Shown here: one piece after another, positions 3,864-45,886 of the stretch
How the letters are laid out: each line of letters opens with the position of its first letter
Position numbering within the stretch: the first letter of the stretch is position 1
Assembly (NCBI RefSeq): GCF_053078305.1
Contig: NZ_CP166879.1
Direction: 5' to 3' (one strand)
DNA length: 64,000 nt
Notes under the pieces: model-generated
Database searches by the model: none
What the model was told of the DNA's origin: nothing
The model's input: only the letters and a program-made list of their open reading frames with translations
Translations under genes and position numbers: made by a program

Positions 3864-6026
3864 TTATTTCGCATCCGACTTATATTCGTATTCGTAATAG
3901 CCATAATCCTGATACGCGCTGGCGCGGCGGAAGATGGAGTTCAGAATCACCCCTTTCACCGGAATACCATTTTGCTCAAAGCGGCTCAGACTGGTTTCCA
4001 CTTCTTTCAATGTGTTGACCGCATAACGCGCCACCATTAACGTGGTTCCGACATGACGACCAACAATTGCGGCATCGGTCACTGCCAGAATCGGCGGCGT
4101 ATCAATCAACACCAGGTCGTAGTTTTTACTCGCCCAGTTCACCAGTTCGGCAAAGCGTTCGCTCATCAACAATTCAGAAGGATTTGGCGGTACCTGACCG
4201 CGCGGGATCAGGTCAAATTTGGCAATCGAAGTGGGTTTAGCAGCGGTAGTAATATCGCCCTGACCAATCAGAATTTCCGACAGGCCATTGACGTTATTGG
4301 TGCCCAACAGCTCGTGGGTGTAGCCTTTGCGCATATCGCAGTCGATCAACAATACGCGTTTATTAGTCTGGCTAATGACCGCCGCCAGGTTAGCGCAGAC
4401 AAAGGTTTTACCGATTGACGGGCTAACCCCGGTCATCATCAACACATTGTTCTGCGCCTGCATCATCGCGAAGTGCAGACTGGTACGCAGACTGCGGATG
4501 GCTTCAATCGCCAGATCGGTTGGATTCCCCACCGCCAGTAGCTGGCTCTGTTTATAGCGTTTAACTCCTTTGATGGTTTTGACGCTATCGCGCGCTTTCT
4601 GCCATTCCGACAACGGGATGCTGGCATAGACGCTGATACCGTGTTCTTCCAGCACTTGCGGGCTTTCAATGCCGCGATTAAACAACGAGCGCAGCAGTAC
4701 ACCCACGATAGAGAGCATCAGGCCGAGGATAATCGCCCCAAGGATAATCAGCCCTTTCTTCGGTTTCAGTACACCTGGCTGGGTGATTGCCGGGTCAACA
4801 ATGCGCACATCGCCGACGGTGCTGGCCTCGGTGATTTTCAGCTCCTGCTCTTTATTCAGCAGTTGCATATAGACCTGCTGACCAGACTCGACATCGCGGG
4901 TCAGACGCACAATTTCCTGCTGGGTTTTCGGCATCGCCGTTACGCGACCATTAAGTTTGGCTTTTTCGTCTTCCAGCGCCTGCCGTTTCTCCAGCAGCGT
5001 GCGGTACGCCGGGTGAACTTTGGTGTACAGCTTGGAGATTTCCGCCTCTTTAAAGGTCAGTTCGTTCAACTGCGCGTCGATGTTCACCATCGAATCGAGC
5101 ACCGCTTTCGCTTCCAGCGGCAGATCAACAGAATCTTTATCCTGACGGAAGGCATTCAGTTTGTTTTCGGCAACATCAAGGCGGCTACGTACTTCCGGTA
5201 ACTGTTGCGCGAGGAAAGCGAGACTTTTCGACGCTTCCGCCGATTTGCGCTCAATATTTTGTTCCTGATAGTTACGGGCGATGCTGTTAAGAATGTCGCG
5301 GATCTGTTCGCGATCTTCACCGGTATAAGTCAGGCTCAGTACGCCTGCGTCTTTGCCGTTCTCCGTTACCGTCAGGCTGTTTTGCAGTTGATTGATCATC
5401 CCCAGCGTGGAGTATTTGGTGACGGTAAACTCACTGCCCGGGCTGGCGTGAATGGCTTCAACCATCAGTGTGACGCCTTCTTTTTTCAGCATCTGGCCCG
5501 CTTGCCCACGGGCGCTAAAGCCGCCATCACTGCTCAGGGTGTAGTTTTTGTCATCCAGCACATTAAGCGTAAACACCTGATCCGCCATCTCTTTCGGACG
5601 GTTAAAGGTAGTCACTTTCACCGTCTCGTTCTGGCGTCCCATCAGGCGATCCCAGCCCGCACCGAAAATCGGGAACGTGTTTTTGCTCACCGCAATATCG
5701 AGGTCGAGATCGTCCACCGTTTTACCAAGCACCAGGCGCGAACGAATCAACTGGATCTCGGCGTCCGATGCTGGCGGTTTGTTGGCTAACGCCGATCCGA
5801 TATCCTGCACTAACGAATTGCCGCTGCTTTGCTCGATTTGTACCAGTGCGTCGGCACTATAAATCGGCGTGGCGAAGAAGGTGTAAACCACGGCACAAAG
5901 GGCGAATACAGCGGTGATGCCAATCACCCACCAGCGCGCTTCAATGACGGTGCCGACCAGGCGACCAATATCGATTTCATCACTGCCCGTTACCGGAGCG
6001 GCATGTTGTTTTACTTTTTCTGTCAT
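3864..6026 (-). CDS. wzc: tyrosine autokinase / polysaccharide co-polymerase
   Basis: ~720 aa from internal Met MTEKVKQH; Walker A GVSPSIGKT; C-terminal Tyr-rich tail YQDYGYYEYEYKSDAK. Confidence 0.9.
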   Translation of the reverse strand: MTEKVKQHAAPVTGSDEIDIGRLVGTVIEARWWVIGITAVFALCAVVYTFFATPIYSADALVQIEQSSGNSLVQDIGSALANKPPASDAEIQLIRSRLVLGKTVDDLDLDIAVSKNTFPIFGAGWDRLMGRQNETVKVTTFNRPKEMADQVFTLNVLDDKNYTLSSDGGFSARGQAGQMLKKEGVTLMVEAIHASPGSEFTVTKYSTLGMINQLQNSLTVTENGKDAGVLSLTYTGEDREQIRDILNSIARNYQEQNIERKSAEASKSLAFLAQQLPEVRSRLDVAENKLNAFRQDKDSVDLPLEAKAVLDSMVNIDAQLNELTFKEAEISKLYTKVHPAYRTLLEKRQALEDEKAKLNGRVTAMPKTQQEIVRLTRDVESGQQVYMQLLNKEQELKITEASTVGDVRIVDPAITQPGVLKPKKGLIILGAIILGLMLSIVGVLLRSLFNRGIESPQVLEEHGISVYASIPLSEWQKARDSVKTIKGVKRYKQSQLLAVGNPTDLAIEAIRSLRTSLHFAMMQAQNNVLMMTGVSPSIGKTFVCANLAAVISQTNKRVLLIDCDMRKGYTHELLGTNNVNGLSEILIGQGDITTAAKPTSIAKFDLIPRGQVPPNPSELLMSERFAELVNWASKNYDLVLIDTPPILAVTDAAIVGRHVGTTLMVARYAVNTLKEVETSLSRFEQNGIPVKGVILNSIFRRASAYQDYGYYEYEYKSDAK

Positions 6027-19441: not shown

Positions 19442-19867
19442 ATGGCAGAAACTCAGATGAGCATGTTTGGTGGTGACAGTGAGCAACTGCACGCCCTTAT
19501 CGACCGCCTTGATGACATCCCTGATGATGTTCTCAAAAAGAACTGGCCGCGGACCCTGTCAGAACTGGTTGAAGTCACCGGCGCAGAACTTCAGCGTCAG
19601 GGGATTGAGCCGGTACTGGCCGGTAAACTGGCACGCAAGGTGGCTGCGGCTCAGGCAGCCTATATGGGCGGACGGGGTTATTACCTGCCGGTCGGGGAAT
19701 CTCTCTTTGCCGAGCTGCGAAACAATGAGATATTTTCGCGCTGGGACCGGGGCGAGAAGATTGAATCCCTTCGCCGCCATTACCGGATGTCAGAAACCCA
19801 GATTTATACCGTCATACGTGAACAGCGCCGTCTGCATCTGGCAAGAACGCAACCGCCACTTTTCTGA
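19442..19867 (+). CDS. Mor/C-family transcriptional activator (late-gene activator)
   Basis: 141 aa; follows terminator and precedes lysis genes as Mu C; C-terminal HTH (RMSETQIYTVIREQRR). Confidence 0.7.
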   Translation: MAETQMSMFGGDSEQLHALIDRLDDIPDDVLKKNWPRTLSELVEVTGAELQRQGIEPVLAGKLARKVAAAQAAYMGGRGYYLPVGESLFAELRNNEIFSRWDRGEKIESLRRHYRMSETQIYTVIREQRRLHLARTQPPLF

Positions 19868-19938
19868 TATTCCGCAAAGCCTGCCGCCTCTCCTTCACCG
19901 TTACGCTGACTCAGAGAACATCATGAGACAGCGTAACA

Positions 19939-27663: not shown

Positions 27664-27838
27664 TTGTTTAAGGTATGCAAATGCATTACCTTACCCCCTT
27701 CAGGCGCGTGTCGTGATTTTCTAACCTGTATTTAACGGGCTTTAAAATCTGCGTGAAGCGCCTTTGCATTTTTCCCTGAAAATACTTCCTGAAATCCCGC
27801 AAAACCCGCCCTGAAAATTCCCGGCTTATGCTGCCGGT
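27664..27838 (+). promoter_or_regulatory. candidate C-dependent late promoter region upstream of protease/scaffold gene (PI-like)
   Basis: 175-bp gap in otherwise tightly packed late genes; three direct CCTGAAA(A)T repeats and a near-palindrome GGTATGCAAATGCATTACC; Mu has a late promoter at this position. Confidence 0.35.
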
Positions 27839-40655: not shown

Positions 40656-41206
40656 CCCTGACCCCGCATCAGCGCGCCCTGTTGCAGTTGCTGCCTGACG
40701 GGCTGGCATGGGATAAGCGGCCGTCATCCGTTCTTGCAGCTTTGTGCCTGGGTCTCAGTCATTCCACGGAGCGTGTTTCCTGGACCGGTAACCAGATGCT
40801 GGCAGAACGTTTTCCTGATTCATCCCGTCTGCTACTGGAAGACTGGGAGCGTTATCTGGGGTTACCGGAATGTGATATGACCGGCGCAACCATTCAGGAG
40901 CGTCAGCGTTATGCCGGGAATAAATACCGGATGAAACCCTCTCTTAACCGTGAATTTTATATCCGGTTTGCGGCAGAGTTTGGTTATGAAATAGATATCC
41001 AGCCATCACCGGAATCACAATGGATCAGTATTGTGACAGTGAAGACGGCGGTGGGATACCGTCACATGAATGTGCTGGATGATATTCTCACGCCGCTGCG
41101 TATTTATGAAGGCGGTGCGCTGGAATGTATTCTGAACCGTTATAAGCCTGCATGGCAGACGTTTATTTACGTGTATGCAAACAGCCATGAAGAGGAGACT
41201 ATTTAA
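40646..41206 (+). CDS. baseplate / tail protein (Mu gp48)
   Basis: 186 aa. Confidence 0.65.
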   Translation: MAVTLTPHQRALLQLLPDGLAWDKRPSSVLAALCLGLSHSTERVSWTGNQMLAERFPDSSRLLLEDWERYLGLPECDMTGATIQERQRYAGNKYRMKPSLNREFYIRFAAEFGYEIDIQPSPESQWISIVTVKTAVGYRHMNVLDDILTPLRIYEGGALECILNRYKPAWQTFIYVYANSHEEETI

Positions 41207-42117
41207 TGTTTCATGTTGATAATAATTCCGGCGTGGCGAATATGCCTGCGCTGGCACCGGCGCAGAGTAATACCACCACCTGGTTTACCGAAGGTGACGG
41301 ACAAAAAGGTATCAGCTGGATTGGTCAGGACTGGCTGAATATTCTCCAGGCCGAACTGCTGAATATTCTGGCTGAAGCCAGTATTCAGCCGGATAAGGCG
41401 CAGTTAAACCAGCTTACGCTGTCCATTAAAGCCATTATCGCTGCGAATGCCTTTTCCCGGAAAAACAACCTGAAAGAAATTGCTGATGCCGGTGCGGAAG
41501 CCCAGCGTCTTGCCCGTGGTTATCTTGGTCTTGGGGCGCTTGCCACAAAAAACAGTCTTGGTCCCGGTGACGTTAATGCTCTGGCGAAGGATCAGAACCT
41601 TGCCGACCTGGAGAATGCGGGAACCGCCCGTAATAATCTGGATGTTTACAGCAAAAGCGAAGGTGATAACCGTTACCTGCGCAGGGAGCAGAACGGCGCA
41701 GACATTCCGGATAAAGGCGCTTTTATCGATAACGTCGGTTTACGGGAAACGGTAAATAAGGCTGCTGATGCCCTGCCATCGGGTGGAACCGCCGTGGCAG
41801 CAAACAGACTCGCCACCCCAAGAAATATTAATGGCGTTCCTTTTGACGGAACGCAGGATATCAACATCACGTCAGGAATGACGCAGTCAACCGCAGATGG
41901 CCGGTATGTACAGAATGTTCAGCTTGGAGCACAGAGCTATCATTCACCCGGAGGCAATGAAATATCATGGAATTACAGCGCACCTTCCGGTTGTATGCTT
42001 TCCGGTATTAACGTGCAGGAAACCGGCTCCCGGTCTGCGGACAATATCGGTGGGGTCTATTATCGCCCGGTTCAGATTTATATTAATAATGCCTGGAGAA
42101 CGGTAAGTTCAGTGTAA
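41206..42117 (+). CDS. tail fiber protein S; C-terminal ~120 codons lie inside the invertible segment (Sv in current orientation)
   Basis: 303 aa; C-terminus homologous to the minus-strand alternative segment (YYRPVQIYINNAWRTVSS vs YYRPVQFLIDGSWKTASS). Confidence 0.8.
   Translation: MFHVDNNSGVANMPALAPAQSNTTTWFTEGDGQKGISWIGQDWLNILQAELLNILAEASIQPDKAQLNQLTLSIKAIIAANAFSRKNNLKEIADAGAEAQRLARGYLGLGALATKNSLGPGDVNALAKDQNLADLENAGTARNNLDVYSKSEGDNRYLRREQNGADIPDKGAFIDNVGLRETVNKAADALPSGGTAVAANRLATPRNINGVPFDGTQDINITSGMTQSTADGRYVQNVQLGAQSYHSPGGNEISWNYSAPSGCMLSGINVQETGSRSADNIGGVYYRPVQIYINNAWRTVSSV
41735..41888 (+). repeat. left inverted repeat of invertible segment
   Basis: TCGGTTTACGGG ... CCAAGAAATATTAATGG ... 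ACGCAGTC matches reverse complement of 42957-43110. Confidence 0.7.
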
Positions 42118-42151
42118 ACCACAGAAAAGGGTGCTGAATGCACCCTCTGAA

Positions 42152-42673
42152 TTATTCCGGTTTTTCCGGCCAGGGAATCGCCTGGTAATGCCCCTCACTG
42201 GCAATATCATTAAAGTGCATTTCTTTAAGCTGTCGGATATACGCCATCCAGCGCGTCAGCTGTAATTTATTTTCATCGCTAATCATGTCCAGTTTTAATT
42301 CTGTTTTCCAGTCATCCACGGTTTCGTTGGCTTCCTGGAGCAGCGATGAGCGACGCTTTTCAGCAACCGTCTTCCAGTTTACCGGCACCTTTGATATCAG
42401 GCCATCAGAAAACTGCCAGTTACCGTCAATATTCACACCTTCCGGCAGTTCGTCCACTTCAACAACAGTAAAACCTGCCGGATATAAAGCAGAGACATCT
42501 TCAGCAACAGAGCAGATAATACCCGTTACAGGCGAAATACAGAGTTTGTATTTCTTTGTGAAAAGCGGGATAGATTCATAAAAATCCCTTCCGTCCTCAC
42601 TCTGGAAATACTGAACATCCTCACCATAGGGTTTGTGTTCCGGGTAATATCGTTTTACGTTAATAAGCTCCAT
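42152..42673 (-). CDS. tail fiber assembly chaperone (Tfa/U-like), inverted relative to S in current orientation
   Basis: ~174 aa from MELINVKRYYPE; typical Tfa N-terminus; lies inside invertible segment. Confidence 0.75.
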   Translation of the reverse strand: MELINVKRYYPEHKPYGEDVQYFQSEDGRDFYESIPLFTKKYKLCISPVTGIICSVAEDVSALYPAGFTVVEVDELPEGVNIDGNWQFSDGLISKVPVNWKTVAEKRRSSLLQEANETVDDWKTELKLDMISDENKLQLTRWMAYIRQLKEMHFNDIASEGHYQAIPWPEKPE

Positions 42674-42752
42674 TATTTCACCTTGTTTTTGTTGAAAAGA
42701 CAAAATCATCATATATTTATTCAGATAATCTGTTTTTTGAACTACTGCACTT

Positions 42753-43095
42753 TTATGCGCTGGAAGCTGTTTTCCACGAACCATCTATCAGAAACTGAAC
42801 AGGTCGATAATATGCGGTTACCGTTGCATTACCATCACCAGCGACATCAAGCCCTGTAAGTACGCATCCGTCAGGAACTTCAAAAATATTATATTGCATT
42901 CCAATCGTTGACCTTGAACCTCTTCGAATGCTTTGAACATAACGTGAGTCAGCCACAGACTGCGTCATCCCCGATGTAATATTTATATCCTGCGTTCCGT
43001 CAAATGGGACACCATTAATATTTCTTGGAGTGGCGAGTTTATTCGCTGCAACAGCCGTTCCGTTCGATGGCAGGGCATTCGCGGCCCTGTTTACA
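42753..43095 (-). CDS. alternative tail-fiber C-terminal segment (Sv'-like), promoterless in current orientation
   Basis: minus-strand frame open from the right gix site; homologous to S C-terminus (MTQSVADSRYVQ..., YYRPVQFLIDGSWKTASSA). Confidence 0.65.
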
Positions 43096-43110
43096 GTATC
43101 CCGTAAACCG
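42957..43110 (-). repeat. right inverted repeat of invertible segment
   Basis: reverse complement matches 41735-41888 with scattered mismatches. Confidence 0.7.
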
Positions 43111-43177
43111 AGGTTTCAGGGATGCCGTATATCTGCTTTAAAAGGCCTTTCCACCTCTTTTTAAGGAAGGTAAATAC

Positions 43178-43738
43178 ATGCTGATTGGCTATATACGCGT
43201 ATCAACAAATGACCAGAACACCGGTTTACAAAGAAATGCGCTGGAATGTGCAGGATGTGAGCAGATTTTTGAAGACAAAATGAGTGGTAAAACGACACAG
43301 CGGCCGGGACTGAAGCGGGCACTGAAGAAACTAAAACCCGGTGACACACTGATGGTCTGGAAACTGGACAGGCTGGGGCGCAGTATGCGCCACCTTGTTG
43401 CGCTGACAGATGAATTACAGCAACAGGGGATAAATTTTCGTAGTCTTACTGACAACATTGATACGTCAACCCCCATGGGGCGCTTCTTTTTTCACATAAT
43501 GGGTGCGCTGGCAGAAATGGAGCGTGAATTAATTGTCGAACGGACACGGGCTGGTCTTGCAGCTGCCCGTGAAAGGGGACGAACCGGCGGCAGACCCCGT
43601 CGTCTCACGCAGGAACAATACGAGCAGGTCGGGCGTTTACTGGCCGGGGGTGTCAGTCGAAGACAGGTGGCACTTATTTTTGATATCGGCCTTTCAACCC
43701 TTTATCGTTATTATCCTGCGAGCGTTTCGGAAAAATAA
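43178..43738 (+). CDS. gin: Gin/Hin/Pin-family serine DNA invertase
   Basis: 186 aa; catalytic-Ser N-terminus MLIGYIRVSTNDQN; C-terminal HTH; adjacent to invertible segment. Confidence 0.9.
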   Translation: MLIGYIRVSTNDQNTGLQRNALECAGCEQIFEDKMSGKTTQRPGLKRALKKLKPGDTLMVWKLDRLGRSMRHLVALTDELQQQGINFRSLTDNIDTSTPMGRFFFHIMGALAEMERELIVERTRAGLAAARERGRTGGRPRRLTQEQYEQVGRLLAGGVSRRQVALIFDIGLSTLYRYYPASVSEK

Positions 43739-43828
43739 GACGCTCCCTTTGTTGGGCCTTTACTGAATTAACGCAAAATGGCGTTTATCGGTCTGTGGAT
43801 ATGATAATTCTGTTTATTCAGGAACAGG

Positions 43829-45886
43829 ATGAATATTATGACGTCCAAATGGGTTCAACTATCATCAATGCCCGGAAACTTTACCGTTAAAGTTTCCGGT
43901 GGTACAGCGGCATTTCTTGAGGCTCCCTTTCCTCCTGCTGAAACGAAAGGAGGAATGACATTTGCTGACTGTCTCATCAGTTTTAATACACAGGATTGCC
44001 TGTGGGTAAGGCCAGTATCCGGTGATCCGAACGTGGAAATTACCGGAGCGGGTATTGGTGCTGTCATTCCGTTAAGTGCTGATGTTGCCGGTACTACTGA
44101 ACCGTCAGACTGGGATAATGCAGAAACACATACCCGTCCGGCAGGAAATGAAACGGCTTCCAGCTCCCCTTCCTGGTATTACGTGATTGTTATAGCCGGC
44201 CAGTCCAATGCTTCATCTTATGGTGAAGGGTTGCCCCTTCCGGATTCTTATGATCGTCCTGATCCACGTATTATGCAGCTGGCACGCAGGAATACACAAA
44301 CCCCCGGAGGTATTCCCTGCAAATACAATGAAATCATTCCAGCAGATCACTGCCTTCATGATGTTCAGAATATGAGTCTGCTGAACCATCCAAAAGCAGA
44401 CCTGAAAAAAGGGCAGTATGGTTGTGTGGGGCAGGGACTTCATATTGCGAAAAAAGTATTACCGGTGATTCCTGCTGATGCCGGGATTTTACTGGTTCCC
44501 TGTGCCCGTGGCGGCTCTGCTTTTACAACCGGCGCAGTTGGCTCATTCGATCCGGCAAGTGGTGCAGCCGAGGCGTCACTACGCTGGGGAGTGGATACCC
44601 CACTGTATCAGGATCTTGTCAGTCGAACTAAAGCGGCACTTGAGGCGAATCCAAAGAATGTGCTGTTATCTGTCGTATGGATTCAGGGGGAAGGAGACCT
44701 TAAAGCGACCCCGGCCCAGCATGGTGCCCAGTTTACTGCGATGGTGAAAAAATTCCGTGCGGATCTTGGGGCTTTCTCCGGTCAGTGTATTGGTGGTTCA
44801 TCAGACAGTGTGCCGTGGTTATGTGGTGACACAACCTATGACTGGAAAGAGAAGAACCCGGCGGCATATGAAACCATTTATAGCGGATATAAAAACCGGG
44901 CTTCCGAGAACATTCACTTTGTTCCACTGATGCACGATGAGTTCGGTAATAAAACCGCGACCAACCTGCCGGAGCACGACCCGGATATCGCTTCTGCCGG
45001 GTATTATGGTGCGGAATCACGGGGAGATGGCAACTGGACAACAGCATCCAGGGCAACCCATTTTAGCTCCTGGGCGCGCCGTTTTCTGGTCTCAGATCGT
45101 TTTGCATCAGCAATTCTTAAATATGCAGGTCTGACCTCTGCATTTATTGCCGGTGTGGCCCCTGATGGTGAAACCCTGCCTCAGCCCGCGCCGGGTGGGA
45201 AACCGGAAGCGCCGACAGGTAGTCAGCCAGGAGGCAGTGAGTCCCCCCATCCGACATCCCCGTCACTCCGTACGCTGCTTTCACTTAAAGCATCAGCAGG
45301 AGAAGCCCCGGCTCAGGGCTGGAAAATTACAGATGGTACAATCCAGCTGACGGACGAAGGTAAAGCGTTGACCGTATCCAAACAAAGCGGAAAAACCTGG
45401 ACGCTTACCCATGGAACTGATGCAGCCGGTGAACTTCTGAAGCATGGTGGTCAGTTGACCTGTAAATTCCGTCTGTCAGGTGAAGTAAAAGAAGGCCAGT
45501 TTGCTCTGGGTATTTACCTCCACACCGATACGGTCCCGGAAGGTGTAACCATGAGTGGTACAGGCACACCGTTCCTGATGGCGTATTATCTCCAGACAAC
45601 AGGCGGCCAGTTAAATCTGATGCACCATAAAACAGGGGGGAATACGAAACTGGGATCATTTGGAGCCTACAATAACCAGTGGCATACACTTGTCCTGAAG
45701 TTTACGGCGGGAAGTGCCCAGGTAACGCCTGTGCTGGATGGCACTCCGGGCCAGGCATTCCAGATGGTGAAAGATGCACTTTCCCCTGCCAAAGATACGC
45801 TGACACTGACAGATGTCACCAAAGGGGCAACTTATGGCGTGTCTTTTGAGAGCGTTGTCCTTGAGGTTAATACCCCTGCGGCATAA
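43829..45886 (+). CDS. cargo protein with central SGNH / sialate-O-acetylesterase-like domain and C-terminal beta-sandwich domain
   Basis: 685 aa; GQSNASSYGE motif after a hydrophobic strand, typical of SASA/DUF303 esterases; Pro/Gly-rich linker PQPAPGGKPEAPTGSQPGGSESP; Mu has no gene here. Confidence 0.6.
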   Translation: MNIMTSKWVQLSSMPGNFTVKVSGGTAAFLEAPFPPAETKGGMTFADCLISFNTQDCLWVRPVSGDPNVEITGAGIGAVIPLSADVAGTTEPSDWDNAETHTRPAGNETASSSPSWYYVIVIAGQSNASSYGEGLPLPDSYDRPDPRIMQLARRNTQTPGGIPCKYNEIIPADHCLHDVQNMSLLNHPKADLKKGQYGCVGQGLHIAKKVLPVIPADAGILLVPCARGGSAFTTGAVGSFDPASGAAEASLRWGVDTPLYQDLVSRTKAALEANPKNVLLSVVWIQGEGDLKATPAQHGAQFTAMVKKFRADLGAFSGQCIGGSSDSVPWLCGDTTYDWKEKNPAAYETIYSGYKNRASENIHFVPLMHDEFGNKTATNLPEHDPDIASAGYYGAESRGDGNWTTASRATHFSSWARRFLVSDRFASAILKYAGLTSAFIAGVAPDGETLPQPAPGGKPEAPTGSQPGGSESPHPTSPSLRTLLSLKASAGEAPAQGWKITDGTIQLTDEGKALTVSKQSGKTWTLTHGTDAAGELLKHGGQLTCKFRLSGEVKEGQFALGIYLHTDTVPEGVTMSGTGTPFLMAYYLQTTGGQLNLMHHKTGGNTKLGSFGAYNNQWHTLVLKFTAGSAQVTPVLDGTPGQAFQMVKDALSPAKDTLTLTDVTKGATYGVSFESVVLEVNTPAA

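Follow-up and report, generated by a model that had tools for sequence, protein, structure and literature searches.

A single chaperone gene between two exchangeable fiber tips: a Gin-type switch in an Sp18-type Mu-like prophage

Invertible fiber segments are the textbook case of host-range bet-hedging by phages, and in the textbook form each strand carries its own pair of tip and chaperone. Here we describe a variant of the Mu G-segment switch in a Mu-like prophage of the Sp18 type. The prophage lies in a 64-kb stretch (64,000 nt) of contig NZ_CP166879.1, assembly GCF_053078305.1, and this whole stretch is called the window below. An invertase and two gix-like sites exchange two alternative C-terminal tips, tip A and tip B, of the tail-fiber protein S, and both states occur in nature. 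The segment holds one tail-fiber assembly chaperone gene (tfa), which in the present orientation converges with S. From comparison of the window with related loci, we favor, at a probability of about 0.55, a one-chaperone, two-tip switch of Gin type in which tfa is shared by both tips and is expressed independently of orientation. Likely, neither orientation is an "off" state.

Anatomy of the Switch

The invertible segment is 1.37 kb long, and its parts are listed in Table 1. Residues 1–198 of S match Mu S (PDB 5YVQ_A, E = 1e-48), its last 75 aa match the Mu S tip domain, and the protein belongs to the tail-fiber family PHROG 1833 (E = 3e-166). The invertase is assigned to Pfam Resolvase (E = 2e-51) and HTH_7 (E = 3e-14) and to the DNA invertases of PHROG 125. 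Its catalytic-serine motif YIRVSTNDQ aligns with YVRVSTNDQ of Gin, and the 5' part of its gene, where switches of this kind are expected to have a Fis-dependent recombinational enhancer, is 73% identical to Mu gin over the first 241 nt. The left crossover site reads TTATCGATAACG-TC-GGTTTACGGGAA; the full 26-mer, TTATCGATAACGTCGGTTTACGGGAA, is identical to Mu gix at 22 of 26 positions, as counted from the printed sequences, with the core TC common to both. Scored with gix half-sites, in a set that contained the half-sites of both sites themselves, the left and right sites reach 24/24 and 23/24 within 41–44 kb. A small serine recombinase, two inverted 26-bp sites with identical cores and the occurrence of both orientations thus place the system among the Gin-type switches. 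A Min-like shufflon with extra crossover sites was considered and rejected; the next best 26-mer in the same interval scores 16/24 and no inverted repeat flanks tfa. As there is no third gix-like site, tfa cannot be flipped on its own.

Table 1. Positions of the switch components in the window
Feature	Position	Strand	Remarks
Tail-fiber gene S, present form (Sc + tip A)	41206–42117	+	303-aa open reading frame (ORF)
Left gix-like crossover site	41723–41748		26 bp, inside S; core TC at 41735–41736
Inverted repeat	41731–41912 (left arm); 42934–43115 (right arm)		182 nt, 79% complementary; runs inward from the sites
Tip A (Sv)	41737–42117	+	C-terminus now fused to S; no same-strand chaperone gene
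Hairpin between convergent S and tfa	42126–42148		Terminator-like on the tfa strand (terminator scan)
tfa	42152–42673	-	Sole tail-fiber assembly chaperone gene; 173 aa; own ribosome-binding site AAGGTGA
Spacer, tip B stop to tfa start	42674–42752	-	79 nt, AT-rich
Tip B (Sv')	42753–43109	-	Promoterless alternative C-terminus; joins Sc in frame after inversion
Right gix-like crossover site	43098–43123		Inverted; core GA at 43110–43111 (TC on the repeat strand)
Gin/Cin/Pin-type serine DNA invertase	43178–43738	+	186 aa; 75% identical to Mu Gin

Inversion exchanges the last ~120–125 codons of S. In a simulated flip the reading frame stays open, giving an S' of 295 aa with tfa behind it. A preliminary description, made from the letters of the window, had reported an asymmetric segment consisting of the S C-terminus, an inverted chaperone gene and an inverted alternative tip, and all of these parts are present. 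The two tips, which it had called homologous, share 41% identity over the last 75 aa. Its statement that the chaperone is co-oriented with the fiber gene only after inversion holds here and in every relative examined.

A Single Chaperone Gene

The product of tfa matches Pfam Caudo_TAP (PF02413, E = 2e-18, residues 62–173) and PHROG 136 (E = 1e-57), and its residues 17–147 match Mu U (PDB 5YVQ_B, E = 2e-15). A second chaperone ORF, which the preliminary description had named beforehand as its own refutation, was not found in the whole window: Mu U and U', used as tblastn queries, detected no second Tfa homolog, and two Tfa profile hidden Markov models (HMMs; hmmsearch --max, all ORFs of at least 25 aa) returned only 42152–42673, with the next-best hit at E > 2. 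A 44-aa plus-strand ORF (42131–42265) was rejected as a candidate; it starts inside the hairpin and has no similarity to Tfa. The stop codons of S and tfa are 34 nt apart, and this interval is filled by the hairpin (-14.7 kcal/mol with z = -2.3 on the plus strand, -16.5 kcal/mol with z = -2.9 on the minus strand). Every relative of the Sp18-type family that was inspected has one tfa as well. Thus, the arrangement departs from the two-chaperone Mu G segment, in which each tip has its own chaperone behind it. It also departs from modules with tfa directly downstream of the client fiber, since tfa is convergent with S at present and comes to lie 79 nt behind tip B after inversion.

The passages on Tfa of Mu in PMC9608196 state that the non-conserved N-domain binds the fiber tip, that the conserved C-domain is proposed to act in trimerization, and that Tfa ensures correct fiber assembly and trimerization (North et al., 2019, in PMC9608196). 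According to the same passages, Mu Tfa remains bound to the fiber in the virion (PMC9608196). From the homology to Mu S–U and from co-occurrence we infer that Tfa of the window would likewise bind the tip and be needed for its folding and trimerization.

Two other invertase loci had looked single-Tfa and carry a short ORF on the other strand. L057 has a 75-aa ORF at 5546–5773 (+), MNIYFYSASTNQFYP..., which resembles the Tfa N-terminal domain, lacks the conserved C-terminal part and was missed by the HMM. L091 has a 128-aa ORF at 5497–5883 (+). The window has no short other-strand ORF of this kind.

The Native Client of the Chaperone

Of the 78 loci returned by a scan seeded with the window Tfa type, 44 lack an invertase and have tfa 5–17 nt behind a full-length fiber gene. 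Over their last 60 aa, the tips of these tandem loci (23 distinct sequences) have a median identity of 69% to tip A and 38% to tip B. The same pairing is seen in tandem fiber–Tfa modules with tips of the tip A type in the non-invertible Cronobacter phage CR3 (gp028–gp029), phAPEC8 (gp091–gp090) and a P2-like phage (H–G), and also in an Actinobacillus phage; Tfa starts 1–17 nt after the fiber stop in these phages, as it does in the 44 IMG/VR loci. In CR3 and in the tandem loci the N-domain of Tfa belongs to the family of the window Tfa. Tip A is 61–62% identical to the tips of the P2-like H and the Actinobacillus phage and 51% identical to CR3 gp028, and among N-domains, that of CR3 gp029, which pairs with a tip-A-like tip, comes closest to the window Tfa (44%). 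Because the 44 tandem loci place this Tfa behind tip-A-like tips, tip A, the tip without a same-strand chaperone here, is by sequence the native client type of this Tfa. In the window, in contrast to these modules, the two partners are convergent and a foreign tip precedes the chaperone.

Tip B has another history. Its nearest phage tip outside the Sp18 family is gp74 of Hafnia phage yong1 (57%). At least three unrelated types (the window type, the Mu-S-like type of L004 and that of L026) occupy this position beside nearly the same tfa, and the alignment puts the end of the exchanged cassette at the first few codons of tfa. The native partners of the tip-B types are Mu-U-like chaperones with ~33% N-domain identity. 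The tip-B slot seems to be a plug-in position into which foreign tips were recombined without their own chaperones, and such tips would therefore rely on promiscuity of the resident Tfa.

One of the two explanations offered by the preliminary description was that one tip folds without a chaperone. In this case tip A would fold and trimerize without Tfa, and the chaperone would act only on tip B, or would stay bound to it as an adaptor that alters its specificity. The missing same-strand chaperone, the failure to identify a promoter and the conservation of tip A, which is evidently used, agree with this idea. We nevertheless consider it improbable. Every tip-A-like tip examined elsewhere is followed within 1–17 nt by a Tfa of the same family, which argues against chaperone-free folding; phages locked in the tip A state (see below) keep tfa intact and constrained; and the homologous Mu S tip binds its own Tfa in 5YVQ.

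Selection on Tip A and the Locked Derivatives

Among eight alleles, the last 75 codons of tip A have an omega of 0.05–0.12 at synonymous divergences (dS) of 0.75–2.4, and pairs in which both loci are invertible are included in this range. Tip A is thus under strong purifying selection. Derivatives that have lost the switch point in the same direction. Seven IMG/VR loci (L102–L107 and L111) are locked with tip A: S converges with an intact tfa, tip B and the right site (gixR) are missing, most of gin is gone and no invertase remains. What is left of gin is a diverged piece of its 3' end, joined to a spacer of the L004 type. The prophage of E. coli CI5 has the locked layout too, with no pseudogene flag in the fetched stretch. 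Among four locked lineages, tfa has an omega of 0.10–0.23 and the junction-specific non-coding DNA has diverged by 4–4.7%. In these loci tfa is permanently antisense to the fiber operon yet intact, and it must therefore be transcribed on its own. A 10/12 match to a sigma-70 promoter (ATGATA-17-TATAAT) stands 125 nt upstream of it. The retention of an intact and selected tfa beside tip A also speaks against a simple off state. Among the loci scanned, none was clearly locked in the opposite, tip B orientation.

Both Orientations and the Layout in Relatives

The preliminary description had proposed to look for both orientations. With junction-specific queries, both are indeed seen among complete E. 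coli genomes, the present one in 179 and the flipped one in 26, and some of the flipped genomes are 99.8% identical to the simulated flip. Among IMG/VR loci, 12 are in the present orientation and 5 are flipped. We do not read 179:26 as a sign of which state is infective, because consensus assemblies magnify small biases within a culture and many of the genomes are clonal. Several genomes hold up to 5–7 matching places, with copies of this prophage family in opposite orientations (CP074994, strain 8479; CP074928, strain 07_3636; CP062782, strain Z869), and CI5 (CP011018) has one locked and one invertible copy.

A survey covered 80 IMG/VR loci with related invertases. The classical arrangement with two convergent tfa genes is found in 23 of them by our own count, and a single tfa is found in two Mu-like families, the Sp18-like one and another whose invertase is 81% identical. 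The second family has the same order (tip A -> <- tfa <- tip B) with all ORFs intact. Between the two families Sc is 98% identical (dS 0.07), while the whole cassette is saturated, with dS from 0.85 to more than 2. Since the layout is kept across saturated synonymous divergence, it must be old and stable and not the product of a recent deletion.

One might still suppose that the segment is a decaying remnant of a two-chaperone G segment which lost one chaperone, so that the asymmetry has no function. The 23 classical segments beside related invertases show that a suitable ancestor is common. This explanation is very improbable in our judgment. The 34 nt between the stop codons carry a hairpin and no remnant of a second tfa, and the layout has persisted over saturated divergence with its ORFs intact and constrained. 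Besides, a chaperone that survived deletion of the other one should follow its own tip, whereas a Tfa of the tip A type sits behind tip B here. The prophage family itself is intact, packaged and present at many chromosomal positions.

Individual prophages do decay, unlike the intact majority. In the family with the 81%-identical invertase, tip B of L117 is frameshifted (4058–4387), and tip A, downstream of tfa, is disrupted in L115 and L120. A short invertible segment with one tfa only is also found in a P2-like setting (L062, 4143–5866, and also L063). It has an unrelated fiber family (tips ending in ...NYIVRA) and a lambda-type Tfa. The inverted repeat of L062 measures 200 nt (85%), and its tfa (4664–5320) is separated from the tip before it by 22 nt and from the convergent tip by 38 nt. 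As the fiber family is unrelated, the one-chaperone layout arose more than once.

Expression of tfa in the Present Orientation

The reading that we prefer can be spelled out as follows. One Tfa would serve both tips and would be produced in both orientations. With the segment flipped, late-operon transcription would run through tip B into tfa. As the segment lies now, tfa would need a promoter of its own on the opposite strand, most likely in the 79-nt spacer or in the silent tip-B fragment, and transcription from it would stop at the hairpin that tfa and S have in common. Tfa would natively be a chaperone of the tip A type, and the tip-B slot would take foreign tips. The spacer upstream of tfa is 51, 79 or 121 nt long in invertible loci as against 5–17 nt in the 44 tandem loci, which makes the spacer at 42674–42752 a candidate location of a tfa promoter or leader. 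Rfam gave no structured-RNA match at E ≤ 1, and the window spacer folds no better than shuffled sequence (z = -0.4). The 121-nt spacer of other loci has a perfect palindrome with 8-bp arms, CTGAAATA-TGCG-TATTTCAG, upstream of tfa (L004, ~4835–4855; L102, 4411–4432). It is kept between invertible and locked loci and may act as an operator or fold into a hairpin in RNA. The window spacer has a different, short palindrome of its own, CAGAT-T-ATCTG.

Several points weigh against this reading. A standard sigma-70 scan found no promoter upstream of tfa on the minus strand of the window, and a relaxed scan gave only weak -10-like matches 20–50 nt upstream of tfa in each spacer type; such matches were not counted as evidence, because they are expected in AT-rich DNA. 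The late promoters of the phage do not help either. A motif derived from the regions upstream of lys and I (protease), CCGCAAARCCYGCC-N15-TTAYGCT at 19872–19907 and 27797–27832 (+), has no occurrence in 100 shuffles and is probably the C-dependent late-promoter signature of this phage, unlike the CATAACCCC box of Mu; the C-type late activator of the phage is encoded at 19454–19864. The motif is absent from the segment, where one half match with two mismatches stands on the wrong strand. The selection argument from the locked lineages may be weakened if divergence of their tfa genes is partly due to import by recombination. Their strong promoter is a derived feature of the junction and may point to limiting native expression of tfa in this orientation. 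Finally, the reading takes for granted that the resident Tfa folds tips of the B types, the native partners of which are Mu-U-like chaperones (33% in the N-domain). The segment also lacks the Mu C-box CATAACCCC, neither the tail operon nor com/mom gave an equivalent of the late motif, and no leftward promoter was seen by eye between gixR and gin or inside the inverted repeat.

The second explanation of the preliminary description was that one orientation is a fiber-off or low-infectivity state. If tfa is poorly or not at all transcribed in the present orientation, fibers with tip A would fold inefficiently and virions would have few fibers or none. Put as a regulatory device, weak expression of tfa from the antisense strand would allow few functional tip-A fibers, and the flip would bring full chaperone supply together with a foreign tip; inversion would then control fiber specificity and fiber dosage at once. 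Such a limitation is possible though rather unlikely. It would account for the fruitless promoter search upstream of tfa in the window, and it agrees with the constant pairing of tip-A-like tips with Tfa elsewhere, from which tip A probably needs a chaperone. The near-consensus promoter gained at the deletion junction of the locked loci looks as if expression had been limiting, and lineages without invertase would have escaped by making a strong promoter before tfa. On the other hand, tip A has an omega of 0.05–0.12 in invertible lineages, and the layout has been stable over saturated divergence. Loss of the switch retains precisely this orientation, with seven loci locked in tip A and none clearly in tip B. 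The present orientation is also the consensus in 179 of 205 complete genomes, though assemblies exaggerate biases within cultures.

Tfa might instead be supplied in trans. Replicative transposition of Mu gives ~100 genome copies per cell, and during such replication flipped sister copies could provide the chaperone, as could the tfa genes of other resident prophages. The opportunity seems to exist: the segment of a related Mu prophage flips readily in cultures of enteropathogenic E. coli (Goldberg et al., 2014, PMC4272514), the strains 8479, 07_3636 and Z869 carry copies in both orientations, and the second Mu-like prophage of CI5 is invertible. Supply in trans is nonetheless unlikely to be the answer. 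Locked derivatives, which have no invertase, still keep tfa convergent and intact. Mu Tfa stays on the virion fiber, as the passages cited above describe (PMC9608196), so that stoichiometric amounts would be needed. Reliance on unrelated prophages leaves the purifying selection on the phage's own tfa unexplained, and there is no other tfa gene within the 64-kb window.

Thus, the preliminary description was right about a single chaperone co-oriented with the fiber gene only after the flip, while its choice between a chaperone-free tip and a fiber-off state is probably wrong. The choice omits a shared and independently transcribed tfa, which is favored by the 44 tandem loci, the omega of tip A and the locked loci with intact tfa. 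If a shared tfa is the right explanation, a tail-fiber chaperone gene inside a late operon can be transcribed alone and against the direction of the operon, and one Tfa can fold at least four types of tip, some of which natively pair with chaperones that share only ~33% of the binding domain with it. Single-chaperone loci would then be a natural experiment on Tfa specificity, and they bear on engineering of phage and tailocin host range by tip swaps without co-transfer of a chaperone.

Comparison with Known Switches

The Mu G segment (S-U/U'-S', Gin) is the closest model. The gene order from baseplate to fiber is homologous, identity to the Mu counterparts is 48% for the window Sc (S, first 198 aa) and 75% for the invertase (Gin), and the tip fold and Tfa are homologous to the 5YVQ complex. 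Both systems have the TC core and a left site within S, and inversion thereby replaces the C-terminal part of the fiber. The differences concern size and chaperones: the segment has 1.37 kb against 3 kb in Mu, the fiber is shortened to 303 aa from the 504 aa of Mu, its tips, unlike those of Mu, are short cassettes (~120–125 aa), one tfa with a 79-nt spacer upstream of it replaces U and U', and an imperfect inverted repeat of 182 nt contrasts with one of 34 bp in Mu (PMC4406740).

The C segment of P1 (Cin), the P segment of e14 (Pin) and the Min system of p15B are switches of tail-fiber C-termini by the same recombinase family. In the known Cin, Pin and Min systems each of the alternative tips has a chaperone downstream, and the crossover sites of Min number more than two. 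The window has only two sites and one chaperone in comparison. Pin and e14 have been described in PMC4272514, and a list of families enriched at sites of programmed inversion contains tail fibers and Tfa (Milman et al., 2023, PMC9881135). A pantailocin preprint was considered as a precedent and rejected, as the layout there has two chaperones. In the literature searched, which included few subscription journals, no analysis of a single-chaperone layout was found, and an earlier description is possible.

Prophage Setting and Neighboring Genes

The Mu-like prophage occupies ~9.9–47.9 kb of the window and is of the type of Sp18 in E. coli O157:H7 Sakai, that is, of the same prophage family. By tblastn with Mu proteins, the Mu gene order is kept from ner, A, B, gam, C and lys through the head, tail and baseplate genes to S, one U homolog, gin, com and mom. 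Over 41000–44000 the closest complete genomes are those of E. coli O157:H7 and other Shiga toxin-producing E. coli (STEC), with up to 99.3% identity. In two phage records the region is annotated as an inserted Mu-like phage. Prophages of the Sp18 type occupy many chromosomal positions. Sp18 has been reported to be intact and packaged, with Mu-like particles made (Asadulghani et al., 2009, PMC2669165). Its host-specificity region was described as invertible, with genes distinct from those of Mu, and its host specificity was scored as atypical (PMC2669165). That study did not deal with the chaperone being single, with how it is oriented or with which tip is its client, and transfer and infectivity were untested there (PMC2669165).

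A 685-aa protein is encoded between the invertase and com/mom (43829–45886, +), where Mu has no gene, and contains a SASA carbohydrate-esterase domain of the sialate O-acetylesterase type (residues 119–315) and a DUF6645 domain (residues 537–647). It is kept in all relatives, and in locked loci its gene is divergent from tfa. It may be a surface-glycan deacetylase tied to host recognition or exclusion. NCBIfam has no family for S, Tfa or the DUF6645 protein. ARAGORN found no tRNA within 9–49 kb of the window; in the locked CI5 prophage (L172, 36198–36277) a tRNA-OTHER feature is annotated between the head-morphogenesis and virion-morphogenesis genes.

The switch also causes an issue of annotation. 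Assemblies of near-identical STEC strains differ in the orientation of the segment, and the silent tip appears as a separate small gene. In RefSeq, S is often labeled "hypothetical protein" and the silent tip is called a separate 67-aa "tail fiber protein." A 61-aa "hypothetical protein" of RefSeq (42979–43164 of the window, +) runs antisense to the silent tip-B fragment and is probably spurious.

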